A program made the translations under genes and the position numbers. A model generated the notes under the pieces. That model was not told the DNA's origin and did not search any database. It saw nothing but the letters and a program-made list of their open reading frames with translations. From Monocercomonoides exilis PA203 (Eukaryota > Protista > Preaxostyla), in the NCBI GenBank assembly GCA_001643675.2, contig LSRY02000005.1, forward strand, positions 1,612,001 through 1,676,000: DNA of 64,000 nucleotides, in the 5' to 3' direction. Positions 3,001 through 64,000 of the stretch are shown here, in pieces. Position 1 is the stretch's first letter. Each line of letters opens with the position of its first letter.

Positions 3001-3035
3001 CGTTCATCACTCCAACAACTTGAAAAAGAAGAAAG
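1..3035 (+). repeat. ~3 kb diverged repeat, inverted copy at 40623-43660
   Basis: Positions 1-320 align by eye with the reverse complement of 43350-43660 (e.g. aatgcagaactgtttttgaaacttg, aattaatatggaacattgtcagcttt). Similarity continues to gaaaagttcgttcatc...gaaaaagaagaaag at ~2993-3035 versus ~40623-40665. Confidence 0.9.
1690..3035 (+). pseudogene. Decayed member of an expanded helical-repeat protein family
   Basis: Fragments FDKLFCELECCMEIEKKQRIEEINEVM, IENEEEHRNLTKQAFECSWQ and REVSRELDELMRQVDLK are broken by stops and frameshifts. A paralogous relic lies at 40623-41982 (-). Confidence 0.7.
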
Positions 3036-3279
3036 AAAGAAAGAAAGAAAAAGTGATAAAAAAACAGCATCATGAATATTTCGATAGACTTTTTATGATT
3101 CATACATATTCATTCGAATGATTGTTTTTAAAAATGAAAGAACTAACATTTTCCAAAAAATCAAGAAAAAAACGTTTAAATTATTTATTGTTAATTATCA
3201 AACAGAATTGTTGAAGAAATGTCAAAATTCTTTTTGACCGATGTGTTAATTTGAATTGCGTTGAATAAAAATAATTAAA

Positions 3280-40622: not shown

Positions 40623-43600
40623 CTTTCTTCTTTTTCCAGTCGACAGTGAGATGAACGAACTTTTCATCAAACATTCTCTACACAAAGGCTTGGAAAAGAC
40701 ACACAAGTTATTTTGCATGAAACCATTGAATCAAAATATCCTCTTAATCTGTCAATCGAGTCATCTAATTATGAAATCTTGAAATCCTTCTTCTATCAGC
40801 TTTTCAGCTATCTCTTTTTTCACTGCCTTTCTTTTTGCTTCATCAGCTTCATTATCTGCCTTTTCTGAAAAGAAGATTGAAAGAATTCCGAATAATGTTC
40901 ACGACAACAACAAACTTCTTTGTCATTCAGTCGTGATTTCTGCATTTCCTATGATATCCAGTCCGCAACGTTGCCTTTCAACAAAGCTTCAATGCTTAAG
41001 TCTCTAATTATTGCAGTTTCTATTACAAAAAGTGAGAAACTTGTCTAATGATTCACTTTTATTCACTCCTGCTTTTCAGCACTGTCTTGTCATGCTTGTT
41101 GTGAACTTGATGTTTTCTTCATCTTTCATTTTCATCAAGAAAAATGGAAGTTTCGAATTGATCCCATTCATCTTCCTTTTCTTTTCCTTCTTTGTCATCT
41201 TCTTTCTTATTCAAATCCACCTTCCTCATCGCCTCATCCAGTTCTCTTGAAACCACTCTCACAAAATTCAGCTCATCTGCAACCCCCTTTTTCAAAACTT
41301 CTGATGAACTGAAACTGCCATGAACATTCAAATGTTTGTTTTGTCAGATTTCTGTGTTCTTCTTCATTTTCAATGATTTCTTTCATCTCCTCAAAAAACA
41401 GCTCTTTTTCTCTTTTCTGTTTCCAATTTGATGAAAACACCAACGTGTTTCCCATACCAACAAAGACAACACAATTTCACTTTTCAAACACTCCAAAACG
41501 ATTCAAAATCAACAACTCCATTTCCACTTCTTTTTGAATTGCTTCTCTTTCTTCATTGCTCGATCATGATTTTGAAAGACAAGACATGTTGATTTCATGA
41601 AAGTTCAATTTGCACAAGCTGTCAGGGAGAAGAGGGCATTTACAAAGATCAACAAGAAGTTCTTCACTCTTTTTTCCAACGATATTCATCCTGTCGAATA
41701 ATCTGCTCAATGAAGAGTTACAAAAAAACAAGCACTCAGAATTCTTCTCATCACTGATTAATATCCATCATGCTTCATCAGGTGAAAGGCTTTTTTTACC
41801 ATCGATTTCTTTTCTCCAATCGATTTGTTAATTGAATTGAACAATTCTATCTGCAAAACAAAAACAATCTCTTCTTCTTCCATTTTGTGCATCACCTCAT
41901 TTATCTCTTCAATTCTCTGCTTCTTCTCTATTTCTGTGTAATACTCCAATTCAGAGAAAATCTCATCAAAAAAGAATCGCAATCATTGAAGGAATTGAAA
42001 AGAATGCCAAAAATAAAAAATACTTGAAAACATGTCCTTTGAAGTCATTTTTTGTGATCAATCTCAAGATTGACTATCTTCACACCATTTCATTCAGAAT
42101 AATGCAAGGTGGAATTCAAGTTTTTTAAAAAACTGTTTGTCAACCAAATAAAGAGATATGAATCCAAAACGTTGTTGATTGTTTGACAAAATGAAAGGGG
42201 GACAATTTCAATTTCAATTGATTTGATTTGTGAAAAACAATGGAAAAGAGAGCAGAGTGAAATGAAATGACTCGGCTGAAAAAGACCAGAAAAGAAACAC
42301 ATTCGTTCATTTCGTATCAAATCAACAATAATTCAAAAAGAGGTTGTTTTGAATTGATCAAAGAGGAATTTCTGATTCTTCGAAGAGAATGCACAACCTG
42401 ATTTAAAAAGTGGATTTGTCTCAAGAGAATTGGAAAACAAGAAAACAACATTGTCGAAAAAGGAAAACAATTGTTTGTTTATTCTCGATATATTCAATCA
42501 AGGTTCAATGATAAATGATAATAGAACTCTTTTTTAATACTATTCACTTCAGCTTAAAGAGGTTGAAAGGAAAGAAATGAACAAAGAAAGGCAAACTTTG
42601 AATTATTAAAAAAAATATATTGGAAAACGAACAGATAAGAAGAAGAGCCTTTCATGAGATGAATGGAAAAGAAAAGTTGTTGAATGAGACAATAACATAT
42701 TAATTATCTTTCATCAAGAGGTGAGAAATATCTTTTTTGCTGAGAACAAAAACAATTTGAGAAGTTGAGCTTTTTTTCAAAGAACAAATCCACACACTTG
42801 AGATGGAACGTTAATTCCAATCAACTTGTTGAAGTCGTCCAACAGTGAAATCCAGTGAAAAAGAAAGGAAAAATACTCAAAAAAGCAAAAAAGACAAACA
42901 AAGGAATGTTTCTTCACATATGGAGAAAAAAATTTCTAATTTATTCTTTTTCATCTGGAGGAATGGAGGCTGACCAACTAAGATACACACATGAAGAAAC
43001 AGTTTCAATACAAAGTGAATGAAGAAGTCAACAAGAAATATGATCCATTCATTATAGAATTATATGGAAAGAAATAATAGAAGTTAAGCAGTCCTGAAAT
43101 CCTTCTTTTGAAATCGTTATCATTGCATCAAAACAATGCAACTTTTGAATGTTGGACATCTCATCAATTTATCTTTTTTATTTTTTCTGTGTTCAGAAAA
43201 TGCAAATTCTTTTGCTTCTCACTATCTGGGCTGAAATGATACAAGTGCCTTGTCTGTATCTTTTTATTCTGTCACTTTACCAATATCATCTTTCACAGTC
43301 ACAGCTGTTGAATTTGATGAATCGATTGCTATTGGTAGTTGCTTAATCCATCAAACAACTTCATTGATGAAAACCTTTCATTGAAGCCTTTCATCAAAGC
43401 TGACAATGTTCCATATTAATTTCTCTGCTGAGAACAACAGATTTCTTTTCATTTTTCATTTTGATTATTCCTTCTCATCATTTTCATGTTGCCTTCAACT
43501 GTTTGAGATATTAACAGAGTTTATCAAATCTCAAGTTTCAAAAACAGTTCTGCATTGTGATTGATTGATGTGAAGGGAAAAATGAAAAGGAGATGATTTT

Positions 43601-43990: not shown

Positions 43991-46900
43991 ATGGCGAGGT
44001 TCTCCACCAGCGCGAAAGTTGCATTCAATATTGTCGCTCTGATATTGGTTGTTGTCAATTGCTGCAATACCTCTGTTATTGCTGAAAAACAAAATCAACG
44101 AGAAACGAATTTGGAGATGCCAGAAAGCGCGATCAGCGTTGAAAACAGCAGCAACAAATACTACAATAAAAAAGGCATAGGTGCAGCAAAAGTCATATTC
44201 TCACCAGGTGATCGTGTCAATTGTGCCCGAACAAATGTGAATATCATCAATGCCTCGTTGTGTGTGAGCGATCTCGCCATGGAACCTCTTGGTGGCTGTG
44301 CATTCCTTTCTGCACAACATCACTCGTCATGCACCATTTTCTCCTCCACCTGCAAGATCCACGCAGATGCCAGCCACCCACTTTTCCTCTCTTCCCACAG
44401 CTCCCTTTCTCTCACCAACTTCTCCCTCTTCATCCCTCAACCAGCCATCCTCTCCTTCCCCCTCTTCTCCATCCCAAACAATCTCCTCCCAGATGCACAC
44501 TCTCCAATCCCAACCTCCTTCTCCATCTCCCACTCCTCTTTCTCTTCTTTCATCTCCCTCCACAATTCCTTCCTTTTTTCTCCTTCATCATCCTCTTCTT
44601 CTTCCCTTCTCCATCGCCATCTCCAAATCCATCTCAGTCTCCATCTCTCGGACACACTCTTCACAAACATCACCACTGCACCACAATCCACACACACCAT
44701 TCCTGCCAAACCCACACACACACACAACTCATTTACCACCACCACAAACACAAACACAAACACAATACCCTTCTTCTCTCTTCATTCCTCTCTCTCCATC
44801 CACTCAACCATTTTCTTCCACACTCACAACCCCATCGATGGTGCCATCCTCCCCGACCTCAACAGCCCAACAACTTCTCTTTCTGCCTTCAACGCCTCTT
44901 TTCTCCACCAAACACGCTCTTCAGCCAATGCTGCTGTGGTGCATGTTGGAACTGAAACTCAAAGAGCGAAACCTGGAAGATTGACTTCATTCGATGTTAA
45001 CAGCCATCGCTTTGAATGGTGCGAATGGAATGATTCAAATGGTGGTAGTGATTGGGGTGGAGCTCTTAAAGTGAATCGCACGAATGCAAATCTCACAATC
45101 ACTTCTTGTTCATTCAACAAATGCTCAACTTACGGGGAAGCAGGAGCATTATACTGTGGGCAACTATTGAAATTAAACATTGAAAAATCCAACTTCACAA
45201 GCTGCTCAGCTGCTCATGGAGGAGCTGCGAGATTAGATAATCCACAATCATCTTCTGTTTGGACATTTTCAGAAAACAGAGTGGAAAATTGTTCAATATC
45301 AGGTTGGTGTGGAACTGGCTGGTATTTTGCTCTAAATAATAATCAGTTAAATTTTCAATTCTCGTTTTCCAAATGCAAGTGCATCTCAAATTCTGGTGGA
45401 GATTCTGCTGGTTCTCTCACATTTCATTCACCTCCACAAAGTAAACCAGAGAAATTTTTGGTTAATGATTGCCAATTCATAAGCAACAAATTGATAAGTT
45501 CATCAACTTCATGGGGAGGTGCTGCGCTGTGTTGCACAGCAACTTTTTCCTGGATGAGCGGAAATAAATTCATCACATTCTGCTTCTTCGATGGCAACAC
45601 TGCCAAAAATGGCAGGGGAAGCGATGTGTTCTTCAATGGCAATTCAATCACCCAATCTCCATTCGAAAATTGCGTCTCAACAACTCCATCTTTAAGAGTC
45701 TGGAATCAAGGAACAGCTGATAATGAGACTTTCAACAGCTGGCTCCCTCTCGTCGCCCAGAACAAAGTCGTTGCCAACAATGGAACTGATGCTGATGTCT
45801 GTGGCAGACAAGGACGGACCCCATGCGCCACTATCGAGTACGCCCTCGATGGCTTTGCTCTCATGCAAGATGCATCTCTCACACTCCTCAGCTCAACATT
45901 TGTCCCAAATCAAACACTCACATTCATCGCTTCTAGCATCAAAATCACTGGAATAGGAACAGATGCCACCACCATTGCCTCCAGTGGCATTCCCCAACCA
46001 CCAAACTTACATTCACAGTCATCACAATCAACATCATCATTTTCTTCATTTTCGTCAACAGCATCTTCTTCTTCACCAGATCCATCTGCCTCGTCTGCCC
46101 TCTTCCAACAGACTCAGGGCTCCCTCACAGTCTCTGCCCTCGCCATCGCCCACAACTCCACAAATCAAATCACCCCCATCCTCTTCCACCTCTCCGGTAA
46201 CTCCCATTCCCTCAAACTCAACACAACCATCATCACCGGAACAACCCCATCTTCATCATCAACCACAACCCCCCTCTTCTTCCTCACTGCTGGCTCCCTC
46301 GCCCTCAACCACACAGCAATCACCAGTCTCGCCCTCAACAGCCAAAGCATCTTCCATCTCACCTCCCTCACAGCACCCCTCACCCTCAACTCCTCCAACA
46401 TCACCCACATCACCTCCACCGCCACTCCCACCAGCTGTGTCCTCTCCTCTGCCACCTCCCCTGCCCTCTCCCTCTCCCTCACCAACTGCACCATCACCAA
46501 CATCGACTCAGCTCCACAAAATCAACAGACTGCCACCAATGGAGGATGCATCTCATTCGCCTCATCTGCACCTGCCAACACATTTTCAGTGAGTGACACA
46601 GCCTTCTCCACCTGCTCTGTGAGCGAGGATACAAGTTCTGGAGGAAGAGGAGGTGCACTCATGATCGAGTTCAACCAAGGCTCACAAGTGTCAGAATCCT
46701 CCTTTTCCATCACCAATATCGTGTTTTCAGAGAACAAGGCCAGCGTTGGAAGAGATATGTATTTTGTGTGTGAATCACTTGTCGCTTCTGTGAAAGAGCC
46801 CTTTTTCGCCTTCATGAGAAGCATCACTGAAAAAGACAACTCAGTTGTTGGGCATGATAGAACTCAAATGTTTAGCGATTGGGATGTGAACCTGTTTGTG

Positions 46901-49900
46901 TTTTTGGATGGGTATTTTTCTGACACGATATATGTGGATGGAACATCTGGAGTGGAGGAAGTGTATTGTGGGTTGGAAAAGGCTCCATGTTTGAATGTGA
47001 ATTATGGGATGGGGCGTTTGAAGAGATCACAGAATATAAAACAGGAGATTATTCTATGTGCAAATTCATCTTTAAATGGATGCTTGGATGTTGGAGGAAT
47101 GAACGTGAAAGCAAAATCCGAGACAATTGTGGGTGTTGAATGCAAAAGGGAAGTGAGTGGCTCTGAAGACTGTATTCTGAAATCAACATTGGAGACAGAA
47201 ATTCAGTTCATCGGGATTATTGTTCCATCAAGATTTAATAGAGCAATCACATCGGTGATCGAATCAACCACTCAAAATGGAGAATTGCACATAAAGAATT
47301 GTGCAATCAGTGTGATTGGAGGAAAGGGAAGCACAATTGGATTTTCCTTGATCAGATCAACGGGAAAGATGGTTGAGCTGGACTCTGTCACGATTTCAGA
47401 TGTGAAATCATCAGTTGCGCTGTTTTCAATTTCTCCTTCATCAGGAAATATGAATGAAGACGAATTCAGAGTGAAACTGTTGAATTGCACAATGGAAGCA
47501 TGCAGTTTGGATAACACCTCATTTGATGGATCTCCATTGATGATATCTTCTTCCGTTTTGTTTGAAAGCAGCAACTTTTCGAATATTGAGAACAAAGACA
47601 GTGAAAAAGGAGGTGTTGCAAAAGTGACATTGCAAGGGAATGAAGAATTGGTGATGAAATCAACAAATGCATCATCTTGCTCACTTTCATCGAGCAATGG
47701 AAAAGGTGGGTTTTTGTTTTTGGATTGTCAGAGTTGCTTGAATGAAAAACCATTTATTTTTGATGCAGGAATTACTTTTGAAAACAACAAAGCAGCCATT
47801 GGAAAGAATGTGTTTATTTTGGGAAAGAATTTGAATAGTTCTGTCACAAATGATTCATTCAACTTTGATTATTCCTCAATGATAAATGATAAAACTCTGT
47901 TTGTTGGAAGTGACAACTTTCATTCAAACAAAGATTTGTTCTTGTTTCTGATTCCATTCAGCTCAACTGAGATATTTATCTCATCTGAAGGATTTGATGT
48001 TGCACGATGTGGAAGTGAAGAAGAGCCATGCTTCACAATGTGGAAAGGGATGGAAAACATGAACGATGGAGAAGGAAATAAAACAATACAAATATCTGGA
48101 TCAACCGTGGTTCAAGATTCATTCAATGTGTCCAGTTATCAGATCAAAAAGAGTGTGAAGATGGGAGAAGAAGATGCAAAAGCGAAATTGAATTTTGAAA
48201 AGGCAATTGGAAGCCAACTGGAATATTTCATGGGAAATGATGTTCATCTTGAATTGACGAATATCCAACTGCAATTGTCGTCTGGATTTGACAACTCATC
48301 CAAAGCTGTTATTTCAAACAACGCTGGTGAGTTGGAAATAACTGGATGCTCATTCCATTCAGAAGCAGAAGTGAACAATGGATTTGAATGTGTATTTGTG
48401 GATGTGATTGGAGGAACTGTGGAAGTGAATGATTTGTCGATTGAATCATGCAATGTTGGAAACAGTATTTTTGTTATTCACGATGATGGAGTTTCTTGCC
48501 ATTTTGTGAATATTCATGTGAAATCGTTGAATGAAAGTGGAGGATGCATTTTATCAATCAAGAAATCTGAAGCAGGGTTGAAGATAAATGAAGGAAGTGA
48601 AGGAGGGATAAACCTTCAAATTGACAAATCATCATTTTCAGGAGTGAAGAGAAGTGACAATGGAGCGAGCATTTTGGAATCAAAGAGTGAGAATAAGATT
48701 TGTTTGGTTATCAATGAGAGCAACATCACAGAAGGCAAAGCAGAATTGGGTGAAAAAGGAGGAGCCATATTCTTCACATTGGGTGCATCTGGATCAATGA
48801 AGATGATTGAATCAACAATCAGTCATTGCAGCTGCAACAACAGCACAGGAAGAGGTGGAGGAGTATATTTGGCAACAGAGGAAAGAGGGTTTCTCAATTT
48901 CACATTTGTGGGAATGAAATTCAGTGCGAACACAGCTAAAGTGGGGAATGATATTTTCATCGAATGTTTTAATATCACATCTCAGATAAATGAAAGGCAA
49001 TTTCAGCTTGATCTTCGAGAGGGACATTATTCACGAATTAATGCGATTTATGGAATTGATTGTTGTGAACACAAAGAAGATACAGATCTGATTGATTTTG
49101 TGACGATCCATCAGAGTGACACAATTATTGTGAGCAGTGTGAATGGATCAAACGATAGGCAATGTGGAACAAGCACGCTTCCATGCCATTCGATTGATTA
49201 TGGACTGATGCATCTGACTTCTGATTTCATAAGTCAGATGTTCATTGTTGAGGAGAGTGTGATTTGTGAAGAGATAAATCTGGAGGAGATGAGTTTGAAT
49301 TCGAAGAGCAGAGAGATGTGCAAAGTTGAAGTGAAATCAGGGATTGAAAGAATGAGAGAGACATTGGTAACAACAACAGGAGAAGTCTCGTTGTTAAGAG
49401 TGAATTTTGTATTTGATTCAAATTTCATTTCTTCACATGAATCGCTGATATCACCAGAAGGAGGAATTCTTGAAATTATGAATTGTTCTTTTACATCAAA
49501 ACAATTAGCAGAAGAAGGAAATGTGGCTTTTACGAGCATTCCATTTCATCTTTTAAATATGGAAAAAGGAGAATTACAACTTATGGAATGCAAAGTGAAT
49601 AATCTCATTCTTCATAAATCTGCATTATCTCTTTCATCACCACTTCCATCAACAATTGATTCATTAACGATTTGCAATTCAACAATTAAAACTTCTCTTA
49701 TTGAGATTTATGAATGTGAACAATTGAATATGGAGAAGTTTCATTCTGAAAATATCACAGTTGAAGGAAATGATGAATCATTGATATCTTGCTTTTCAAT
49801 GAAAAAGACGATGCAATTGACAAATTGCACAATAGATGGAGTTAGTTCACAGGCAACAAAAGGAAAATTGATGAAAGTGGAGGATTGTCTGGATGTGAAA

Positions 49901-52003
49901 ATGGACAGTTGCATTTTTGATGGGAATTCAAAGGAAGGAAATGGGCAGCTTTTCAATGAGGGAGAAGAGATGTGCAGATGGGATGGATCTCTTGTGAATA
50001 TTGCAAGGAGTTCTGTGATGATGAAAGATACAACATTATCAAATTCAGCGGAAGGAGGAATTACAATGAGCGGAGGTGAAATGACTATTGGTGATGGAAG
50101 ATTTGAGAACAATAATCCAACTTTTGAAGGATATCCATCGCTGAGAAGAAATATCATCTGTTCAGATTCTGGAACGTTGAATGTGATGAGTTTGAAGGGA
50201 GGAGATGGATTGAAGGATGGCTCATCATTGTGGATGTTGAATGATGGGTGCAGTTTTGAAGGGATTGTTTCTGAGAGGGATTCATCATTCTTCATTCCTG
50301 TTCTGGAAAGTGTGGAAGCAAAAGAAATAACAGATAGAATGAAGCTGATATTCAAAGGGATGCTTCTTGTTCCATGCAATCTGTCATTCTCAGTTGTGAA
50401 GAGGAAAGGAGAAGAGAAAGAGATTGAAAAATATGATTTTGATGGAAATGGGTTTTTATCAGAAACAGAAGTTGAAGGAAGTGTGGCAAAGGATCTAATC
50501 AGCAATTGTGGAGATGAAATCGAGGTGAGCGTGTGCATTCTGTTTGGGAATGCAGAATCGCCTTCATCAACAAATTCAATCATTCTGAAGAACAGAAGCG
50601 AGATTGAGCCAAAAGGAGATGAAAGAAATGTTGAAGGAGGAAAAGAAGGAAAATCGATATGGCCTCTAATTGTTGTTATATTGGCTGTGTTGTTCTTGAT
50701 TGCGATGATAATCTCCATTGTTGTTACAATTCGATGGAGAAGAGCAAAGAATGAGAATAAAGATCTGAGAGAGATTGTGAATGACTCTGTGAAAAAGGAT
50801 CCGAAACTGATTGAGATGGTGACAATGGAGATGTCACCTGAAGAGCAGTGGAGGAGAGCAGAGAGAGAAGCAGAGAAGAAAAACGAAGAAAGGATAAAGA
50901 AAAGAATAAATGGAAAGGAGATGGTGCATTCAGAATCTGAAGAGTATCTTCTGTCTGAGAGTGGTTCAACTGAATATATATTGGGAAAAGATTCAAACAA
51001 GATTCCTGATTGGGCATTGGAAAAGATTGATGAGAAGGAAGAAGAAGAGACAAGAAAGAGAACACCATCACCATCAATTTCATCCAATTGTTCAACTGAT
51101 TCAGACTCAACGTTTGTTCGATCGGAGAGTCTGTGTCCCACCACCTCATCCATGTCTAATCTGGTGGATGCGATGGCTTGCTCGTCTCCTCATGAGAAAT
51201 TGATTGTGGATTTGAGGGATTCGCTGTTCATGCTTCTTCATGGAAGGAATGAGAAGAAAGAGATGGCGATTGGTTCCTTGAAGGAGAGAGAAGTGACAGC
51301 TGCCCAAATCCTGTTCTGGGTGGCTAATCTCGCACTCCACTCATTTGATGAAATGGAAAATCCACTTCAGTCACTTTCCAATCTCAGCCCACACATTGTT
51401 CTGTTCTCTGAGCATATGGTGATCTGCATTGCGATGCATTCAGACTGTTCTTCTGATGATAGTTCAGATTCATCGTCGATCTCTTCATCAACAGTTGTGA
51501 CATCTGCAAGTGATGATGAAGATTCTCTGCCTTCATCGGCTTTTGAGGATGACGAGGACAATCGATATGAGTGCATGCGGTGGAAGGCGCCGGAGCTGCT
51601 GATGAACAAAAAGATGGGAGCGACAAAGGAGTCGGTTGTGTTCTCGATTGGGATGATGCTGTGGGAGTGTCTGACGCTGCAGATCCCGTTTGGGGAGTAT
51701 GAAGGGGAAGTGGCAGGGAAGAAGATAGCGAGTGGGGAGAGGCCGAATCTGAAGCTGGTGAGAGACTCAGACTATGAAGAGTTTGTGGAATCGCTGCTGT
51801 GGTACGACTGGCAGAAGCGGCTATCGCTGGAGGGGGTGAAGAAAGAGCTGCTGGGGCACATGCCTGCAGGAGCTGTGATGTTCACTGCATCAGACGCCAT
51901 AAGCCTCGAGGAGTCGGAAAACGAGGAGAAAAGGAGCACAGTCGAGATAAACTCACGTGCTCGTGAGGAGGCGGAGCGTTTGTTGAAGGAGATGACAGCT
52001 TAA
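43991..52003 (+). CDS. Large type-I membrane surface protein: beta-helix-like ectodomain, TM helix, degenerate kinase-like C-terminus
   Basis: Intronless 2670-aa ORF with an N-terminal hydrophobic segment, GGA-type repeats, repeated CG-x4-PC modules and TM IWPLIVVILAVLFLIAMIISIVVTI. The C-terminal RWKAPE..VFSIGMMLWECLTLQIPF lacks recognisable HRD/DFG motifs. Confidence 0.85.
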   Translation: MARFSTSAKVAFNIVALILVVVNCCNTSVIAEKQNQRETNLEMPESAISVENSSNKYYNKKGIGAAKVIFSPGDRVNCARTNVNIINASLCVSDLAMEPLGGCAFLSAQHHSSCTIFSSTCKIHADASHPLFLSSHSSLSLTNFSLFIPQPAILSFPLFSIPNNLLPDAHSPIPTSFSISHSSFSSFISLHNSFLFSPSSSSSSSLLHRHLQIHLSLHLSDTLFTNITTAPQSTHTIPAKPTHTHNSFTTTTNTNTNTIPFFSLHSSLSIHSTIFFHTHNPIDGAILPDLNSPTTSLSAFNASFLHQTRSSANAAVVHVGTETQRAKPGRLTSFDVNSHRFEWCEWNDSNGGSDWGGALKVNRTNANLTITSCSFNKCSTYGEAGALYCGQLLKLNIEKSNFTSCSAAHGGAARLDNPQSSSVWTFSENRVENCSISGWCGTGWYFALNNNQLNFQFSFSKCKCISNSGGDSAGSLTFHSPPQSKPEKFLVNDCQFISNKLISSSTSWGGAALCCTATFSWMSGNKFITFCFFDGNTAKNGRGSDVFFNGNSITQSPFENCVSTTPSLRVWNQGTADNETFNSWLPLVAQNKVVANNGTDADVCGRQGRTPCATIEYALDGFALMQDASLTLLSSTFVPNQTLTFIASSIKITGIGTDATTIASSGIPQPPNLHSQSSQSTSSFSSFSSTASSSSPDPSASSALFQQTQGSLTVSALAIAHNSTNQITPILFHLSGNSHSLKLNTTIITGTTPSSSSTTTPLFFLTAGSLALNHTAITSLALNSQSIFHLTSLTAPLTLNSSNITHITSTATPTSCVLSSATSPALSLSLTNCTITNIDSAPQNQQTATNGGCISFASSAPANTFSVSDTAFSTCSVSEDTSSGGRGGALMIEFNQGSQVSESSFSITNIVFSENKASVGRDMYFVCESLVASVKEPFFAFMRSITEKDNSVVGHDRTQMFSDWDVNLFVFLDGYFSDTIYVDGTSGVEEVYCGLEKAPCLNVNYGMGRLKRSQNIKQEIILCANSSLNGCLDVGGMNVKAKSETIVGVECKREVSGSEDCILKSTLETEIQFIGIIVPSRFNRAITSVIESTTQNGELHIKNCAISVIGGKGSTIGFSLIRSTGKMVELDSVTISDVKSSVALFSISPSSGNMNEDEFRVKLLNCTMEACSLDNTSFDGSPLMISSSVLFESSNFSNIENKDSEKGGVAKVTLQGNEELVMKSTNASSCSLSSSNGKGGFLFLDCQSCLNEKPFIFDAGITFENNKAAIGKNVFILGKNLNSSVTNDSFNFDYSSMINDKTLFVGSDNFHSNKDLFLFLIPFSSTEIFISSEGFDVARCGSEEEPCFTMWKGMENMNDGEGNKTIQISGSTVVQDSFNVSSYQIKKSVKMGEEDAKAKLNFEKAIGSQLEYFMGNDVHLELTNIQLQLSSGFDNSSKAVISNNAGELEITGCSFHSEAEVNNGFECVFVDVIGGTVEVNDLSIESCNVGNSIFVIHDDGVSCHFVNIHVKSLNESGGCILSIKKSEAGLKINEGSEGGINLQIDKSSFSGVKRSDNGASILESKSENKICLVINESNITEGKAELGEKGGAIFFTLGASGSMKMIESTISHCSCNNSTGRGGGVYLATEERGFLNFTFVGMKFSANTAKVGNDIFIECFNITSQINERQFQLDLREGHYSRINAIYGIDCCEHKEDTDLIDFVTIHQSDTIIVSSVNGSNDRQCGTSTLPCHSIDYGLMHLTSDFISQMFIVEESVICEEINLEEMSLNSKSREMCKVEVKSGIERMRETLVTTTGEVSLLRVNFVFDSNFISSHESLISPEGGILEIMNCSFTSKQLAEEGNVAFTSIPFHLLNMEKGELQLMECKVNNLILHKSALSLSSPLPSTIDSLTICNSTIKTSLIEIYECEQLNMEKFHSENITVEGNDESLISCFSMKKTMQLTNCTIDGVSSQATKGKLMKVEDCLDVKMDSCIFDGNSKEGNGQLFNEGEEMCRWDGSLVNIARSSVMMKDTTLSNSAEGGITMSGGEMTIGDGRFENNNPTFEGYPSLRRNIICSDSGTLNVMSLKGGDGLKDGSSLWMLNDGCSFEGIVSERDSSFFIPVLESVEAKEITDRMKLIFKGMLLVPCNLSFSVVKRKGEEKEIEKYDFDGNGFLSETEVEGSVAKDLISNCGDEIEVSVCILFGNAESPSSTNSIILKNRSEIEPKGDERNVEGGKEGKSIWPLIVVILAVLFLIAMIISIVVTIRWRRAKNENKDLREIVNDSVKKDPKLIEMVTMEMSPEEQWRRAEREAEKKNEERIKKRINGKEMVHSESEEYLLSESGSTEYILGKDSNKIPDWALEKIDEKEEEETRKRTPSPSISSNCSTDSDSTFVRSESLCPTTSSMSNLVDAMACSSPHEKLIVDLRDSLFMLLHGRNEKKEMAIGSLKEREVTAAQILFWVANLALHSFDEMENPLQSLSNLSPHIVLFSEHMVICIAMHSDCSSDDSSDSSSISSSTVVTSASDDEDSLPSSAFEDDEDNRYECMRWKAPELLMNKKMGATKESVVFSIGMMLWECLTLQIPFGEYEGEVAGKKIASGERPNLKLVRDSDYEEFVESLLWYDWQKRLSLEGVKKELLGHMPAGAVMFTASDAISLEESENEEKRSTVEINSRAREEAERLLKEMTA

Positions 52004-52960
52004 TAGACTTACCGTTGCAAAAACTGTTGTGCATGCAATAATCCATAAATCTCAAAGAAGAATTGAACGGTAGTGCCTGACAGAGAAAGGGAAATTTTTT
52101 TGTTTGGAAAAGTTAAAACATTGATGGAAAATGGCGAATATGTGAAAGAAAGAAAAGACAGAGAGAAATTGCGAAAAATGTTCAAATGTATTTATTAAAT
52201 TATTTGTTTTTTGTAATTGTTGGTATTTCGTTCGTTTGTTTTTGTCTTATTTCAAACAGATTCAAAGCAAAACAGTTGATTCTGAGAGATTCTTGATGTT
52301 GATTTTTGTTTCTTCTGTGTCAACGGTACTCAAAAAAAGAAATATTGCAAGGCAACAATTGACACACAGATATTAGAAAATCAAATCTTTCGGAGTATCT
52401 TTTGGGTGCATTTGAATTCTTCGAAAAAAAAAATTATAACATTATTTGAAAGATTATAATTTATTTGAATAGGGTTAATTGTATTCAGAAAAACGGAACA
52501 TTAAAAATTCGCAAACATAATTCAAAGAAAGTCCAAAATCTGATTCATTTAAGAAAAAAGGACGATTCCCTTCCATTATTATCTTTTTAACTTCAATAAA
52601 ATGGAAACAAAACCTAAATTGAGTTTTTATTTCCATTTCAGTGAAGTTTCGAAGGAGGAACAGAAATTTGATCAAAATATGAAATTCGTATTTCGTTTGA
52701 AAAAACAACAAAAAAAAGTTTTCAAAAAATTGTTGTGCATTATAATTCCAAGTTAATATTTTTCCATTGAAACAAAAAAAACAAATCAATTATTTTTGTA
52801 ACTCAAATCATCACCCTCATGACAAAAAATAGAGAAATTTATTTCGTTTCGAATAATCTTCCAAAAAAAGCAAAATGTTTGATTTCATTTGGGTTATTGT
52901 TTTTGAAATCATAATTTAATTCGGGGCGTTGATTTTTCAAAATTATTAAGTACTACTATA

Positions 52961-53014
52961 TAATGCGAGTAATTAAACCCACATTTAAAAATGTGGCCCA
53001 AATTACTCACATTA
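52961..53014. repeat. 54-bp imperfect palindrome
   Basis: taatgcgagtaatt-aaac-ccacattt-aa-aaatgtgg-ccca-aattactcacatta. Confidence 0.8.
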
Positions 53015-54087: not shown

Positions 54088-54435
54088 ATGTCAAAAACAG
54101 CTAAAACTATTAAAAAAGAATTACCAGATATAACAATAATTGAACCTTTTTCACCTGATATAAAAACATTTGAAACAGTTCAGGAGTTTAAAGAGTATCT
54201 AACAGATAATGAAGAAGAGATGAATAAGCTATCAACATGTAAACTCAATAAGCAATATCACATAGAAGGATATAGAATCACCAAACTCAATAACAAGATA
54301 TCACTAAAGAAATCTTCAAATAACTACTTGTCGAAAAATTTATCGAACGATTCTGAAATTATTGATGCAATCAATATTCTGTCAAAACAAATGGAAATCG
54401 TTGTAGAAACTCTGAAAAATAATAGACTGCTTTAA
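54088..54435 (+). CDS. Hypothetical viral protein
   Basis: ATG 54088 follows the shared TTTTTATCTT motif. Its stop overlaps the ATPase stop at TTAA 54432-54435. Confidence 0.7.
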   Translation: MSKTAKTIKKELPDITIIEPFSPDIKTFETVQEFKEYLTDNEEEMNKLSTCKLNKQYHIEGYRITKLNNKISLKKSSNNYLSKNLSNDSEIIDAINILSKQMEIVVETLKNNRLL

Positions 54436-55334
54436 AGGTGTCGAACGTATCTTACGTTTAAAGACGTTCTGTTGTCTTCTTTTTTAGCATAAATAATGGT
54501 CTTTATTTTTGTACCATCGTCATCATATGAGAAGTGCATGATGTCTCTTCTGCTTAAATTTTTGTAGCCTTCCCATAGAGCATCACGATCTTGATAAGTC
54601 TGCAGCTGATAATATACATAATTGAACTTCAATTTGGAGAATCCTCCAAATATCCACAGAGTATCCAAATTAGCTTTCACTTCCGAGCATATTCCTTTTG
54701 GATCTTGTAAGCATAAGAAGTATGTGATCATAGGCTGTCTATTCTCAAACAGTAATCTAAATATCCCATCTTTCTTTTTAAACATCTCCATGCAATCATC
54801 AAATAAAACTGCTGTGTGATGAACAGGTTGAGAAAAGTCATCTATATGCAGTGTCTCTAATACAGCATTCACAACTGATTCATCCTGTTGTTTTCTATTG
54901 TAAATGTCACGATATAGTTCTTTGGCATTACTGATATCAGTTAGTGTTTTTAAAGCTTCATTATATCTCACTTGCACAATTGGAAATTCAATAAATTTCT
55001 TCATCCTTTCAAATGTCTGATCACTACTCTTATCAGACACATACACAAATAATGAATAGCCTCCAAAATGCAGTTCAGGAGTGACATCATATTCTTGATA
55101 TAATTCATCTAATGCACTCACTTTAGCTAGTTCTTTCAAAACACTATATGTTTTTCCACTTCCTCTTCCTCCGACAAGCAAATTAACAGAATTGCGTTTG
55201 AAAAACAGATCTGGATGTATATCTGATTGAATCTCATGTGTGATATCTAATTCTGCCTCCCTGTTTCTTCTATTCACGATTGTTTCTAAGGATCTCGAAT
55301 TGATTTCTTTCAGAAGAATCAGTCCGCTTTTCAT
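54432..55334 (-). CDS. A32/FtsK-HerA-like DNA packaging ATPase
   Basis: Walker A LLVGGRGSGKT, Walker B AVLFDD, Arg-finger/Gln-sensor region ENRQPMITYFLCLQD; 300 aa. Confidence 0.85.
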   Translation of the reverse strand: MKSGLILLKEINSRSLETIVNRRNREAELDITHEIQSDIHPDLFFKRNSVNLLVGGRGSGKTYSVLKELAKVSALDELYQEYDVTPELHFGGYSLFVYVSDKSSDQTFERMKKFIEFPIVQVRYNEALKTLTDISNAKELYRDIYNRKQQDESVVNAVLETLHIDDFSQPVHHTAVLFDDCMEMFKKKDGIFRLLFENRQPMITYFLCLQDPKGICSEVKANLDTLWIFGGFSKLKFNYVYYQLQTYQDRDALWEGYKNLSRRDIMHFSYDDDGTKIKTIIYAKKEDNRTSLNVRYVRHL

Positions 55335-56892: not shown

Positions 56893-58653
56893 ATGTCAAA
56901 TCTGCATGTTACAAAAGCACTTGGGTTACAGCCTGTTGGAAATATTGAGGCTGCATTAAAAACTTATTCAAAAATGACTGCAATCAACGATGGAAGACAC
57001 TATTATTCAATTTCAGAATCTATTCCTGATGAAAAACTTCCTTTGGATTACACTCATGAAATAAACATATCTATGACTAACGCAAATGTTGATGTCACAC
57101 AAATTCATGATTCATTTATTACTACAGTCATTACTGCAAGAATCAATTTCTCTCATGATCTTGTTACACGCGATAATGAGATCTCACAAGCAGGAAAGAA
57201 ACTGCTTGAGTCTCAATTTATGTTCATCGGACTGAGATCAGGATCAAATATTATCTCAGATTATTGTGTTGTTCATGGAGAAGATAAGATTATTGATTCG
57301 ACTCGTCAGCCCAACGCAACTATTGAATCATTTATATATAACACGATCAAGCCAAAAACTGAAAAAGATAATCGAAAACATATACACTCTTTATATGATA
57401 ATGTGCACAAATATGATAATTCTGCTTGTGGAGTCTACGTTCCGATAACACTAATTAAAGCAGGATCTTATCTTGATATTGATATTCCAATATCCATTCC
57501 TCTTGATGATATTCTTCTGTTTTCAGGATTTATTGATTATCCTAATCGTTTATTCGGAAATTTGAAACTGAAATACACCATAAAACCTGAAGCACTTGTT
57601 TACTGTCGAGTATCTCCAAAAATGTCCATGATCAAAACTGTAGGAAAACGAAGAAACTACTTCAAATCTTCACAAGGACAAAACTACGATAGCATAATGA
57701 AGATGATCCTTACTACTCCTGATTCATGTTTTGAGTATGCAAAGAAGTTCACACAAATAAACTGTCCTTCACGTCAGTTTGTATTCAATTATGACTTAAC
57801 TGCTGAAGGAACTGTTGATGGATTCAATTATGAAACTATTATTCCTGAATTTACTCCCACAGTCACATTCTGCCAGACGAAAGACTGTAAGATCTCTATT
57901 GCGGGTTATAGTGTGTCTTCTCAATGCTTAACTAATCTTATTGAATACTTCTCTTCTCATCCATTTGTTGTTCCTTCACAAAGAATTGAGACAAAAAGAT
58001 TAGGAAGTGCTCCTACTCCTTCAGGATTTCAACAGTGCCATGACAACTTATGCTTTAATCATGTAATGTCAACAGTTACTCTGTTCCAAAAAGATACTCG
58101 TCATTGGACTACATTTGACAACCCTCAATATAAAGAGCTCCAACTCTACATAGGTGATAGACGATTCCCTGAAAAGCCTTTAAATACTACAGATGCAACG
58201 TTTTTCCAGATGATGCTTAATGCTTCAGATCTTGATTCTTTATTCCCTGCTACTGAGGAGTACGAAGAGAGTCTCACAAGTGTCAAAAATAATGCTTCTG
58301 AAGTCTTCTTTCCAACTACTGATGATACATCATTCATGTTCACAACACAGTGTGAGAGAAGTGGTGGAACTGGAATCTGTTTTGATGGAATTCACACTGG
58401 AAATACTCCTGTTTCTGTTGAACTCAGAGAAACTCCCATATACAGTGGAGAAACAGATACTTATTACAACGTTAGAGATGATCTTTCTCAAACTGCAAGA
58501 CATCCTCCTGCTCCTCTATTCAACATGGTTCAACAATCATTTTGGATTTTTAGTCTTAAAGATGGATTAAACGTTCAATATGTTAAAGATCACACTGCAG
58601 AAGATGTGTTAAGAGCGTTAGGATATACTCCAACTGGAGAATTAGAAGAATAA
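56893..58653 (+). CDS. Probable major capsid protein (double jelly-roll)
   Basis: 586 aa with beta-strand-like alternating hydrophobic patterns (IDIPISIPL, LKLKYTI, LQLYIGDRRFP), located between the packaging ATPase and a penton-sized gene. The fold is inferred. Confidence 0.65.
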   Translation: MSNLHVTKALGLQPVGNIEAALKTYSKMTAINDGRHYYSISESIPDEKLPLDYTHEINISMTNANVDVTQIHDSFITTVITARINFSHDLVTRDNEISQAGKKLLESQFMFIGLRSGSNIISDYCVVHGEDKIIDSTRQPNATIESFIYNTIKPKTEKDNRKHIHSLYDNVHKYDNSACGVYVPITLIKAGSYLDIDIPISIPLDDILLFSGFIDYPNRLFGNLKLKYTIKPEALVYCRVSPKMSMIKTVGKRRNYFKSSQGQNYDSIMKMILTTPDSCFEYAKKFTQINCPSRQFVFNYDLTAEGTVDGFNYETIIPEFTPTVTFCQTKDCKISIAGYSVSSQCLTNLIEYFSSHPFVVPSQRIETKRLGSAPTPSGFQQCHDNLCFNHVMSTVTLFQKDTRHWTTFDNPQYKELQLYIGDRRFPEKPLNTTDATFFQMMLNASDLDSLFPATEEYEESLTSVKNNASEVFFPTTDDTSFMFTTQCERSGGTGICFDGIHTGNTPVSVELRETPIYSGETDTYYNVRDDLSQTARHPPAPLFNMVQQSFWIFSLKDGLNVQYVKDHTAEDVLRALGYTPTGELEE

Positions 58654-58897: not shown

Positions 58898-59413
58898 ATG
58901 AGTGAACATGAAGTGCTTCGGGGACTAAGTCCCCTCGAGGATCATAGATCCGTTCCAGCTAAGGCTGCTCGGCAGACCTTGACCCTTCGGGATATTTCGT
59001 CGAGAATAGATATAAATTATGATATCAGTGTGCCTGTTAAAAGATATCACTCAACATCAACTTTAATCACTAATCTTCCAAAAGCGTTTATTAATTCAAA
59101 ACGAAAAAGATATTTTCATGTTATATGGTGTAAACTGATTCGAAAAATTGAATTAAACAACAGTGAATCTTCAAGTTTAATTAATACTATTGCACTTGAA
59201 AAGCCTAAACACATTTCATTACATGGGGATTTCATTCATGAAGATAAAGATAATGATTCACTCGTTAGGTATTGTAATGAATTTCAAGAGAGAGATAAAT
59301 ATCAGCAGTTCTTTCAACAAGATAACTTCAGAGTTTGGTTCAAAAATTTTGATGAAACTCCTTTGGATATGTCTAATGTCAAATTCGTAATGAAATACAT
59401 GTTGGAATATTAA
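58898..59413 (+). CDS. Probable minor capsid (penton) protein
   Basis: 171 aa directly after the putative MCP. C-terminal FRVWFKNFDETPLD...FVMKYMLEY resembles the last strands of single jelly-roll minor capsid proteins. Confidence 0.5.
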   Translation: MSEHEVLRGLSPLEDHRSVPAKAARQTLTLRDISSRIDINYDISVPVKRYHSTSTLITNLPKAFINSKRKRYFHVIWCKLIRKIELNNSESSSLINTIALEKPKHISLHGDFIHEDKDNDSLVRYCNEFQERDKYQQFFQQDNFRVWFKNFDETPLDMSNVKFVMKYMLEY

Positions 59414-59495
59414 ATATAAAATATATCAAAACGGTTTTCTTAATTTATTCCAATATTAGTAATATTTTTTCATTTTAGTAAATATTTTTACTCCT

Positions 59496-59981
59496 ATGAA
59501 AATGAACAACGTTGACAAGCAAATTTTAACTGCTAATAATGAAGTATTTTCACTAGGGACTTACAACGGATTATCAGTTATTATTAGAGAAAAGGATAAG
59601 TTCATTAACGCAACAAAAATGTATTTAGCTATTAATGAAAAAAAGAAGTTCAGCAGGATTCGTGATAGTAAATCTTGGGAAGAATATATTGATGAATTTA
59701 AGCGTGTATATAATTACAACTCTAATAACAGTAATGAATATGAATATGAATTGAAAAAAGGATATGATAAACAAACAAGAGGAACTTATATAGATCCTAA
59801 ACTTATAAATTATATAGCTATATGGGCATCTCCTAAGTATGCACTATCTGTTGGAAAACTTATGAACATAATTAATCAACGCACACAAATAACAGGAGAA
59901 TCATTTGATTCAGTTAAAGATAGTTTAATTGAAGAACAGCAAAAAATAATCGATGAACTTAAATCTAAAATTGATCAATAA
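59496..59981 (+). CDS. KilA-N domain protein
   Basis: YNGLSVIIREKDKFINATKM, RGTYIDPKL and IAIWASPKYA, followed by a coiled-coil tail. Confidence 0.88.
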   Translation: MKMNNVDKQILTANNEVFSLGTYNGLSVIIREKDKFINATKMYLAINEKKKFSRIRDSKSWEEYIDEFKRVYNYNSNNSNEYEYELKKGYDKQTRGTYIDPKLINYIAIWASPKYALSVGKLMNIINQRTQITGESFDSVKDSLIEEQQKIIDELKSKIDQ

Positions 59982-60113
59982 AAAATGAATAGATAATATA
60001 TTTTTATTTATATTCGAAAAAAACACTTATGATTAACTTTACTTATGTCTAATACTCAAGGCTTCAAAAATTAGCGTCAATTTTATTTTTTCGAATTTTT
60101 AATTACTATAAAA

Positions 60114-60818
60114 ATGAGTAATAAAAATACTATTGGATTTTGTACCAATGCTATGTGTAAATGCACAGCTGATATTGTAGAAATCATAGATGAGAACTTT
60201 ATTGTTATCGATTACAGTCAACTACACTTGATATTTTCAGTCAAGGATCAAATGTTTAACGCTTCAAAACTTATAACAAGTATTTCATCATCTGAAATGA
60301 ATACTTGGAACAGAAGCAAAAGTGGACAGTTGTTTAGAAAGAGATTTCCACAATACTTTCGTGAGATAACTACGAAAGAGTTAAAAGGAACAGATATCAA
60401 CAGATTAGCAGGAACTTATATGGATCCTTCGATGCTATTTGTTATAGTATCATGGTGTAATCCAATGCTTGGATATTTCTTAGCAAATGGCATCTGTGAT
60501 GAATGTAAAAACGATGCAGCAGGATATGTTTATGTAGTACAACCTGAAGAATATTTTGATACTGACATTTATAAAATTGGTAGAACTTGGAATCCGAAGC
60601 AGAGATACAACAATTATGGAAAGAAAATTAGAGTAATTCGAGAAGTTAAAGTATCAAATATGTATGCGTGTGAGTCAGACATCATATCTGAATTAGAGGA
60701 ATATAATTTAAAACCTTTAAAAGGAAAAGAATATTATCAAGTGGAAGATATCGATGATGATTTGTTATATCATTTTGATGAGAACGCAAGCAGATACAAA
60801 ATTAAAAAAGATCAATAA
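60114..60818 (+). CDS. KilA-N-like plus T5orf172 (GIY-YIG-like) domain protein
   Basis: MFNASKL...GTYMDP...VSWCNP, then GYVYVV...YKIGRTWNPKQR...E...GKEYY. Confidence 0.82.
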   Translation: MSNKNTIGFCTNAMCKCTADIVEIIDENFIVIDYSQLHLIFSVKDQMFNASKLITSISSSEMNTWNRSKSGQLFRKRFPQYFREITTKELKGTDINRLAGTYMDPSMLFVIVSWCNPMLGYFLANGICDECKNDAAGYVYVVQPEEYFDTDIYKIGRTWNPKQRYNNYGKKIRVIREVKVSNMYACESDIISELEEYNLKPLKGKEYYQVEDIDDDLLYHFDENASRYKIKKDQ

Positions 60819-60961
60819 AGTTTGAATAATATATTTTTATTTCATACATGAAATACACTTATGATTCACCAAAGTAATATCAATAAATGATACCCCTGAA
60901 GGGATAGAGATTCTTCAAATCAATATCAAATCCATCGAAATGTTAGCCAAAAATAATCCGG

Positions 60962-61144
60962 AGCAAGTGACTTTATCTGTCTTGCTCCAGCTTGCTCCAT
61001 GTCGATTTTATATATAAGAAGTACTGATTTCAGTCTCAATATTGATCAATCTTGCATTAAAAACTGTATAAGACCGGAGCAAGTGGAGCGGAGCAAGTTA
61101 TCAAATCGTTATCTCTAAAAATAGCGGCCATACGGACATATTGG
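60962..61144 (+). repeat. Inverted repeat left of the primase-helicase gene
   Basis: Exact reverse complement of 63818-64000 over 183 bp. Confidence 0.97.
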
Positions 61145-61217
61145 TCATTATTATAAGAAAACAAGAAAATAAGCTTAATTTCAAAAAATAACTTTTTTTA
61201 TTTCCACAAAAAGACAT

Positions 61218-63806
61218 ATGCAAAACTTTATGGACATAAACTCAAAACTGTTAAGAAAAAATCCTGCATTAATGGTTAATGAAGATCCAGAAATTGAAGA
61301 GATGTTTGTTCAAGAAGAACAGAAACGGAGAATAAGAAAAGAAATGATGAAAAAGAAGACAATCGGTGAAAGAATAAAAGGATATCAGAAACCATTATAT
61401 AATTACAAGAAAGTGTCTCGAGAATTCAAGAACAAAACTGCTGATGAAACAGTTAATGAAACAGGACAGAACACTGGACATTATATTGATATTAGCAAAA
61501 TTGATAATCTTGCTGTTGTCGATATCGACATCAATAAAGCAGTTGACGAAGAAAGAAAAGAGAGAATCAGACAATCAATTCTTTTGAGATTGCCAGAAAA
61601 TGTCGGATTAGTGCAGACAGGAAATGGTGGATTGCACATATACTGTGACAGAGATGAATATCCATTAAAGACTGATTCACAAACAAAAGCATATAAGTGT
61701 TCTGATTATGATATTGATGTGTTTGCTTGTGTTAATGGAAATCGACGGTGTCTTGTTCAAGCTGATACAGAAATAATAAAGTACACAGAAGAAGAGAACA
61801 AGTATGCAACAATATATATTCCTGAGAAATTGATAAAGAAAGCAGAAGAAGAGAGTGATTTTACTGGTCGATATGATGATTCTGCAATCAATCAATTCAT
61901 CGAACAAGCTGAGACCAGAATACGTGAAAGAGTCAAAGGAGATTCTAAAGTGATAAAAAAATATATTGACTTGAATAACTACCTTGCTAAATCGAATCTT
62001 TCATCGTTGGAAGACATTCTGAATATATTTGGTATTGATATTCGATATGATTCATCAAATGACGATACAAACATACATCTAACAGCTGATGGACTATGCT
62101 CAATGCCGAAAGAGTTTGCTGAAGTGCTTGTTTGTGGACTAACAAATGTTACAATACATAGTTATTGTCATTTCAGTATCGATAGAGAATTATCGTTGTT
62201 CCCGTTGTTTTGTGCCATTAACAGTCTCATTAATATTGAATCAGTACAAGATGAAGACATCGATGCATACTATCAAGAGATAAAAAGCAATAATATATTA
62301 ACAGCTAATGCTGATATGAATTGGGATCGAACACGAGAGAAATGTTCGAATAAGAAATCAACACCTTATGCTTTACAGAAGATCGTCAAGATCTGGTGTC
62401 CAGAATTTTATCAAAACACTGTTGTTCCTGAGATTAGGAAAATGAAACTAATGAAAACTCCAATTATAAAAGAAGTTATTGAATATGAGAAATGCACAGA
62501 AACATATAACTATTTAATTAGGAATGTAACGAAGATGTCAATACAAGATATAAAACAACATCTATTACGAACATTTGCAAAACTTGTCAAAGGAACTGAC
62601 GTTATTGCTCGAATGGAAACCAATATTTATTTCGTAAGAGATGCTGAATGGTTTGAGAATCAATTGAAACGTTTTATCATTCCATACGGTGTATCAACTA
62701 TCACATTAAAACAATTATTCGTCGAGCAATTCAAAAACTTCACTGTATATGATGAGGTTGCTCCTGTCTCAGATTTACCAAACATTTTCAACACATTCAG
62801 AATGAGAGATCCAACAGTATATCTGAATAATGAAGTCAAAACGATGATTGATTTTCTGAAAACTACATATGCTGATGAAGTTGCTTTCTATTTCGATCTT
62901 GGACGAGATCAATGGAGATTTAGAAACAATTATAAGTGAACAAAAATATCATTGGGATATTATGGTGAAAAGGGTGGAGAAGGAAAAGGTTTTCTTACTA
63001 CATTAAGGACAAAAGTGTACGGCAATGAATTCTCATCTGTTAATGTTAGATTCAGTCAATTAGGAAAAGAGCAAACAAAATCTCTTCTTGCAAATAAATT
63101 ACAGATTCAATTCGACGAGCTTCCACGTATAAAGGATGGAAAAGTTGTTGTTGAAGACTTCAAAATCCTTGATAATGACATGCTGTCAACAAGATCGATG
63201 GCAAGAGATGATGAAAACATAACTCTCTATTTCGATTGTGATTTCTCAACTAATAATTCATCATTTGCTGGGATATATAGTGATGAAGCAGTGCGAAGAC
63301 GTTTGTATCCCATCGAAAGAATACTTTCGACAAGAGAAGATGCGGTGGAGATGTGGAAACAATTGTGGAGTTGGATTAAGAATGAAGATTTCATCCACTC
63401 TTATATCAAATACATAAGAGAATCAGAAGATATTGAAAAGAATACAACATTCAAACCATATACCAAATTCACAATGCCAGTTTTCTTTAACAGAATACAA
63501 CAATCATATGAAGACTCTTTCGATATATGGTTAGAAGAATTCACTGAAGAACAATATAATAAAAATCTTTCCTATGAAAGAAAAGCAGATGGTATCAAGG
63601 GATTTAATGCAATTGATTTATTCAAGAACTACACAAAATATTGTTCTCTGAACAAACTTCCATCGACAATGAACAAAATTGGAACATTTAATGAAAGACT
63701 CAAAAGAATTTACGAGTATGACATCAATACAATAATGTGTTCAGATGGAGTCAAACGAAGATTAACATATATTGTCATGAAAGAAGATGAAAACATTAAT
63801 CAATAA
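61218..63806 (+). CDS. Prim-pol (AEP) plus SF3/D5-like helicase, interrupted by one in-frame TGA (62937-62939)
   Basis: Prim-pol motifs LAVVDID and VQTGNGGLHIY. The same frame continues NNYK*TKISLGYYGEKGGEGKG (Walker A), IQFDE (B), FSTNN (C) and AVRRR (Arg finger). Confidence 0.88.
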
Positions 63807-63817
63807 AACATCAGTGT

Positions 63818-64000
63818 CCAATATGTCCGTATGGCCGCTATTTTTAGAGATAACGATTTGATAACTTGCTCCGCTCCACTTGCTCCGGTCTTATACAGTT
63901 TTTAATGCAAGATTGATCAATATTGAGACTGAAATCAGTACTTCTTATATATAAAATCGACATGGAGCAAGCTGGAGCAAGACAGATAAAGTCACTTGCT
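63818..64000 (-). repeat. Inverted repeat right of the primase-helicase gene (truncated by the window end)
   Basis: Exact reverse complement of 60962-61144. It begins 12 bp after the helicase stop. Confidence 0.97.

Follow-up and report, generated by a model that had tools for sequence, protein, structure and literature searches.

The window analysed here, a stretch of 64,000 nucleotides of Monocercomonoides exilis DNA, carries an endogenous Polinton-like virus of the Metamonada group, with a replicase gene between two inverted arms at its right-hand edge (Table 1). We found that the major capsid protein (MCP) falls in clusters that are commonest in Preaxostyla and Parabasalia and gives TM scores of 0.55-0.74 against capsid models. 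Its cluster-mates are M. exilis proteins of 97-99% identity, and 38 of the 42 matches, as counted from the match table, are named Streblomastix. The P-loop ATPase is probably the packaging ATPase, judging from its sequence. A family search with the 171-aa ORF gave no match; its position, the one clue to its role, makes a minor capsid protein possible. The T5orf172 domain in the KilA-N gene beside the left arm was matched at E 2.3e-9, and nuclease activity is predicted for it.

Table 1. Viral features in the window, with the evidence for each
Feature	Position	Strand	Evidence or detail
Probable left end of the virus; strong palindrome immediately inward	52952..53014	.	Contig loose ends; folding against shuffles
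P-loop ATPase (GGRGSGKT)	54432..55334	-	Terminase-like family profile, E 1.7e-5
Double jelly-roll major capsid protein, 586 aa, Metamonada group	56893..58653	+	Clusters, capsid models, homologues
171-aa ORF after the MCP	58898..59413	+	Position only
KilA-N gene	59496..59981	+	Profile match
KilA-N + T5orf172 (GIY-YIG-type nuclease family) gene abutting the left arm	60114..60818	+	Profile match; single-copy depth
Left arm, perfect part	60962..61144	+	Self-comparison; outer edge from run contigs
Outer iteron block	60960..60998	.	GGAGCAAG at 60960(+), 60981(-), 60991(-)
AT-rich core, 74 bp, GC 0.26	61000..61073	.	Between the iteron blocks
Inner iteron block	61074..61098	+	GGAGCAAG at 61076 and 61090, GGAGC between
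Replicase: AEP prim-pol, helical region, SF3/D5-like helicase, predicted winged helix	61218..63806	+	Profile and structure model
Right arm, up to the window end	63818..64000	-	Self-comparison and run contigs

The window was compared with contigs of four runs (X1-X4), all from one sample that is possibly the source of the assembly itself. Contig depth serves as a rough guide only and gives no copy number, and the contigs are blind to gene orientation because a 186-bp repeat is too long to phase across. A contig joint that skips 59477-60889 reveals one sister copy lacking both KilA-N genes. Together with the single-copy depth of the KilA-N/T5orf172 gene, this indicates that 59477-60889 is a variable accessory slot beside the replicase cassette. 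Loose contig ends with differing flanks before 52952 mark the probable left end of the virus. About 10 bp inside it lies an imperfect palindrome (52961-53014; z -5.25, equalled by 0 of 200 shuffles), which could be an attachment or terminal structure. This probable left end has no GGAGCAAG, the repeat found in the arms, and no similarity to the arms, indicating that the arms are not the ordinary outer repeats of the virus. A doubling of depth at the left end, a possible sign of an outer terminal inverted repeat, was seen in X1 and X2 but not in X3 or X4, so no claim is made of it. None of the 11 ORFs of the virus that were scanned here matched a recombinase family, and no tRNA was found in the 64 kb of the window.

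The flanking host DNA has features of its own. At 52401-52801 the depth was about 2300-2800 in X1 and X2, not in X3 or X4, and this segment, close to where the virus is inserted, may be a host repeat of high copy number. A host ORF of 2670 aa (43991-52003), ending about 950 bp before the virus, encodes a large predicted surface protein with a C-terminus that looks kinase-like by eye. Two stretches of host DNA, at about 81-2492 and at 41173-43581, are diverged, inverted copies of one another over about 2.4 kb, in pieces that are 73-91% complementary and lie about 39-43 kb apart.

The two arms are identical in inverted orientation over 183 of 183 bp (60962-61144 against 63818-64000), the right arm meeting the window end. 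This recomputation agrees with the sequence-only reading, which had described such a repeat hugging a primase-helicase gene, had placed the capsid module outside it, and had allowed that it might be longer than the window reveals. On the last two points as well the result is the same: within the window all capsid-module genes lie outside the arms, on the left side, and run contigs extend the arm identity as far as about 60959, for some 186 bp in all, the outer edge being fuzzy and lying near 60944. Since a double-depth piece starts at 60959 in X2, X3 and X4, the identity is probably about 3 bases longer than the window shows. The left arm ends 73 bp upstream of the replicase ATG at 61218, as had been reported, and the right arm begins 11 bp downstream of the stop codon, which ends at 63806, rather than the 12 bp given earlier. 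According to the ORF listing, the replicase frame is the only one between the arms. No further arm match below E 0.6 was found within the 64-kb window.

In each arm GGAGCAAG occurs five times, distributed over two GC-rich blocks that enclose an AT-rich core, with GC contents of 0.52 in the outer block, 0.26 in the core and 0.64 in the inner block. Five copies in a 201-bp arm were reached by none of 2000 shuffles, and 156 control windows of the virus held at most three. The outer iteron block folds as a hairpin (z -2.8, with 3 of 200 shuffles as good), the whole arm folds no better than its shuffles (z -0.5), and no significant hairpin was found in block 60885-60915. By its composition the AT-rich core is a candidate unwinding element. 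Passages of PMC4234260 place the pRN1 origin just 3' of its replicase gene and describe the P4 alpha winged helix as binding origin repeats. The iteron and AT-core anatomy, taken with these related replicases, suggests that the arms are likely copies of a replication origin.

On the evidence of a profile match (DUF5906) and a structure model, the enclosed gene is a non-pPolB replicase, an AEP-SF3 fusion. Its prim-pol domain spans about aa 47-277 and the predicted winged helix about aa 759-862. The model, with a mean pLDDT of 63, aligned to the pRN1 ORF904 prim-pol (Z 9.8, rmsd 3.6, 154 aligned), to the NrS-1 prim-pol (Z 8.3) and to the NrS-1 SF3 helicase (Z 8.1, rmsd 4.2, 146 aligned). Residues 759-862, a region over which a separate C-terminal model was poor, aligned to the C-terminal region of ORC2, which we take to be a winged helix, at a Z of 6.6 in the ambiguous range (rmsd 4.9, 89 aligned). 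A Foldseek search with the replicase model gave no match at E <= 0.001, its best-ranked rows being prim-pol proteins. The reading frame is interrupted by an in-frame TGA at 62937-62939, which the sequence-only reading does not mention; the relatives read through this position unbroken. Contigs of three runs stop exactly at 62936, just before this TGA, and the stop is consistent with a copy-specific substitution.

Sister copies of the virus differ from one another in their arms at 12 or more positions. At 61100 and 61102 the arms of other copies carry different letters, and the letters of the window occur at about twice the single-copy depth (175.6 of 968.6 in X2; 9.3 of 42.3 in X4). As these letters are common to the two arms of the window only, they indicate that its arms were homogenised after the split from the sister lineages. 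A recent insertion may contribute to the perfect arm identity. Among the rows listed, third codon positions account for 8 of 9 variable sites in the MCP, 5 of 10 in the ATPase and 2 of 4 in the replicase, counts based on 40 of the 575 variable-site rows together with the arm-region rows listed. The predominance of third-position differences in the MCP suggests that the copies diverged when the virus was active, a pattern less clear in the ATPase and the replicase.

The contigs also give a view of how the arms are connected in sister copies, among the arm-region loose ends and pieces listed, beyond which there are a further 25 and 170 respectively. At least two contig types reach the 3' end of the gene from the arm, indicating that several sister copies have arms at both ends. 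One arm variant of single-copy depth parts from the window at 61148 and continues into another leader; it is a candidate arm of the other replicase (MONOS_9167 type) described below. In one or two sister copies the outer edge of the arm is joined to a viral-type promoter and an ORF pointing away, and joints from 60066/60087 to 60944 on opposite strands were present in X2, X3 and X4. Most simply, the arm-to-promoter joints represent the virus continuing past the right arm; they could also represent an alternative left flank. 

Several smaller rearrangements were noted among the copies. A truncated arm piece (60998-61095, with 8 differences in 98) is followed by no fewer than 243 letters of unrelated DNA; X1, X2 and X4 have loose ends listed here, and X3 the piece itself. 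One contig links the inner end of the arm to the left-flank block, perhaps through a tandem duplication. A spacer present in sister copies was not found in the window. Identical capsid fragments (KAH7822621/22 and KAH7822630/31, which are MONOS_12454/12455 c1 and c2) lie on a single contig in mirrored order, separated by seven accessions, and are probably a head-to-head virus duplication.

Capsid fragments at sister loci are 97-99% identical to the MCP of the window. By accession order, such fragments adjoin two further replicases, MONOS_12453, which is 92% identical to the window replicase over 341 aa, and MONOS_9167, which is 54% identical to it and has a capsid neighbour 98-99% identical to that of the window. 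The front half of MONOS_9167 matches the window replicase at 102/151, 47/96 and 100/120 residues, and after residue 410, on the helicase side, at 41 of 188 (22%). Its helicase half is closer to environmental proteins, with up to 104 of 201 residues identical to P0017, and the helicase part of the window replicase has separate relatives at 42-54%. Because this swap point lies within the gene and not at an arm, an exchange bounded by the arms is something that we infer rather than see. Enclosure of MONOS_9167 by arms of the window type is putative, its locus being known from accession order.

Relatives outside M. exilis were few. In viral contigs we found nothing close for the replicase (three weak loci), the arm motif, the MCP or the helicase subfamily, and a scan of prokaryotes gave three weak loci. 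A metagenome scan returned four loci, among them L004, a close relative that is whole, and L005, a partial one. No inverted pair of at least 30 bp was present in L001, L004, L005 or L007, four of the ten loci, and in L004, for which alone among whole close relatives there was DNA, none lay within the 488 bp upstream of the replicase. The 201 bp right after this replicase (2877-3077), at the contig end, hold six GGGACA repeats in both orientations, a result reached by 0 of 2000 shuffles. As the repeats lie only on the 3' side, with no inverted copy upstream, a 3' origin may be ancestral and the second arm derived, and the double-arm architecture may be local. L004 also has a divergent 142-aa ORF upstream, with no Pfam match.

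Could the repeat be an artefact, either an assembly fold-back or the junction of the ordinary terminal repeats of two elements? The sequence-only reading had named both as weak points of its own claim, and some room for them is left by a repeat that reaches the window edge and by runs that may come from the assembly's own sample. However, the contigs join the arm to the 5' leader of the gene as well as to its 3' end (loose ends listed for X1, X2 and X4), and the junction of left flank and arm is present as a unique, single-depth contig in all four runs. Arm pieces that match the window type exactly are covered about twice as deeply as their single-copy neighbour in X2 (158.9 and 175.6 against 73.7-83.9), X3 (12.1 against 5.2-6.2) and X4 (9.2 against 4.2-4.6). 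The two inner junctions and the nearly doubled arm depth rule out a fold-back, and the arm is unlike the probable left end of the virus near 52952, which argues against a junction of ordinary ends; an artefact of either kind is thus largely refuted and highly improbable. It is also very unlikely that the arms are a lineage-specific accident, in which a lone 3' origin gave rise to an inverted second copy, the two staying identical passively and having no role in swapping, the mosaicism being due to ordinary recombination. Such an accident would accord with the 3'-only repeats of L004, with the intragenic breakpoint and with the commonness of replicase mosaicism in these viruses, but not with the retention of arms at both gene ends in several sister copies or with the occupation of the gene's upstream region by the left arm.

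Two more active roles for the arms were weighed. In a programmed flip-flop, also among the options of the sequence-only reading, the arms would be recombination sites for inversion of the replicase segment, so that the genome would exist as two isomers, possibly as a means of amplifying copy number. A perfect inverted pair with concerted evolution is expected from repeated inversion, and the viral-type promoter and ORF at the outer arm edge of one or two sisters would fit a segment with unique viral DNA to either side of it. We nevertheless regard a flip-flop as quite unlikely, given the lack of a recombinase family among the viral ORFs scanned and the resemblance of the arms to iteron arrays around an AT core, not to a short palindromic crossover site. 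The alternative of an autonomous or captured one-gene replicon, bounded by terminal inverted repeats, self-priming, inserted into a capsid-encoding virus and able to exist alone, draws on a gene that is self-sufficient in principle (prim-pol and helicase) and on arms that sit tight to it and are homogenised as terminal repeats are. One arm piece adjoins unrelated DNA, and many full-length relatives lie on contigs of 2.5-5.4 kb, a weak point since most contigs are short. Depth speaks against it: in X2, long replicase pieces (208-233) remain below capsid pieces (279-361), and at 61117 the arms of X2 and X4 add up to about 6-7 times the single depth, as expected for 3-4 cassettes, so that the depths fit one cassette per virus and not an amplified free element. 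Both other annotated replicases found adjoin capsid genes, no transposase lies between the arms, the outer edge lacks a sharp boundary, and comparison across copies gave no evident target duplication. This nested replicon, one of the options offered by the sequence-only reading, is accordingly unlikely.

We favour, with a probability of about 0.55, an origin-bracketed replication cassette that related viruses likely exchange, either as a whole or partially. A swappable cassette with its own origins had been proposed before, and that proposal is borne out in part by the iterons and AT core, the concerted arms and the near-identical capsids beside different replicases. From these observations and the modelled domain folds we infer origin function, protein binding and a role of the arms as swap points. 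The predicted C-terminal winged helix would bind the GGAGCAAG repeats, the helicase would unwind the AT-rich core between the GGAGCAAG blocks, and the prim-pol domain would prime and then copy. Arm-arm recombination or copying during viral replication would maintain arm identity, and arms common to co-resident viruses would offer homologous edges for replicase swaps between them; inversion of the gene may arise as a by-product. A bolder version is doubtful, in which a single prim-pol-helicase gene flanked by two origins of its own forms a minimal, self-priming and mobile replicon that inverts, replicates itself and, with no integrase, passes from one capsid module to another. If it were true, the virus would have a genome with two inverted repeats and an active means of changing its replication machinery. 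Autonomous mobility of replication modules is called speculative in a 2026 preprint. The replication modules of Polinton-like viruses and virophages are in constant turnover. The present locus combines defined cis elements (arms, repeats and AT core) with a matching predicted DNA-binding domain, and one genome holds sister copies in which the capsid is nearly unchanged and the helicase half is different. These properties make the swap hypothesis behind the origin-bracketed cassette testable.

The yeast 2-micron plasmid, the herpesvirus US segment and plastome inverted repeats are known cases in which a pair of homogenised inverted repeats encloses a unique segment. The window has a homogenised inverted pair like theirs, with much shorter arms, and it shows no recombinase, circular form or second isomer. 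Transposons of the terminal-inverted-repeat type carry a transposase between their repeats, in contrast to arms that enclose a replicase frame only, and transpovirons carry pPolB and a DDE transposase, in contrast to a cassette of one AEP-SF3 gene. 

Closer parallels exist among replicases. As described in passages of PMC4234260, pRN1 ORF904, NrS-1 and P4 alpha resemble the window in having a prim-pol, an SF3 helicase, a C-terminal winged helix and an origin beside the gene; these systems are prokaryotic, pRN1 has one downstream stem-loop without iterons, and the P4 primase is of the Toprim type. The 'end module' of Polinton-like viruses, consisting of a primase-helicase, a tyrosine recombinase and inverted repeats, comes with a model of its turnover (Barth et al. 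2024, PMC11296320, in part). It is similar to the window in the inverted repeats by the primase-helicase, proposed as an origin, and in its association with T5orf172. Its repeats are taken to be the element ends and lie on one side of the gene, whereas those of the window lie on both sides and are unlike the probable left end. Bellas et al. 2023 list six MCPs for M. exilis, so its viruses were already catalogued, and their Metamonada (MMN) group has an MCP family common to Streblomastix and the window virus; the passages of that paper (PMC10120064) contain no internal inverted repeat, its gene maps being images. Switches of replication module are described as common in parts of 10.64898/2026.06.19.733378. 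The portions of PMC12220804 and PMC8767320 add nothing on internal repeats, and in the main text of the latter 'virus' and 'viral' never occur. No published description of the locus was found in the literature searched, which covered text outside figures and preprint supplements.

The nearest known systems are in Polisuviricotina, where the main text of Barth, Ha and Aylward (bioRxiv 10.64898/2026.10.13.758929), which has no mention of Monocercomonoides, already reports repeat-bracketed replicase modules and swaps of helicase domains. Those modules and the window have in common repeats that are distinct from the outer ends and enclose the replicase while leaving the capsid module outside, an AEP-SF3 replicase with no adjacent integrase, helicase-domain swaps and an endonuclease gene nearby. 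On present evidence, then, the locus is not a new kind of system. The cases reported there are from genomes with two replicase classes, and the window has no second one. What distinguishes the window from the modules as described there is that one gene stands alone between perfect, iteron-bearing arms, that these arms evolve in concert, and that the swap is found among sister copies in one genome.
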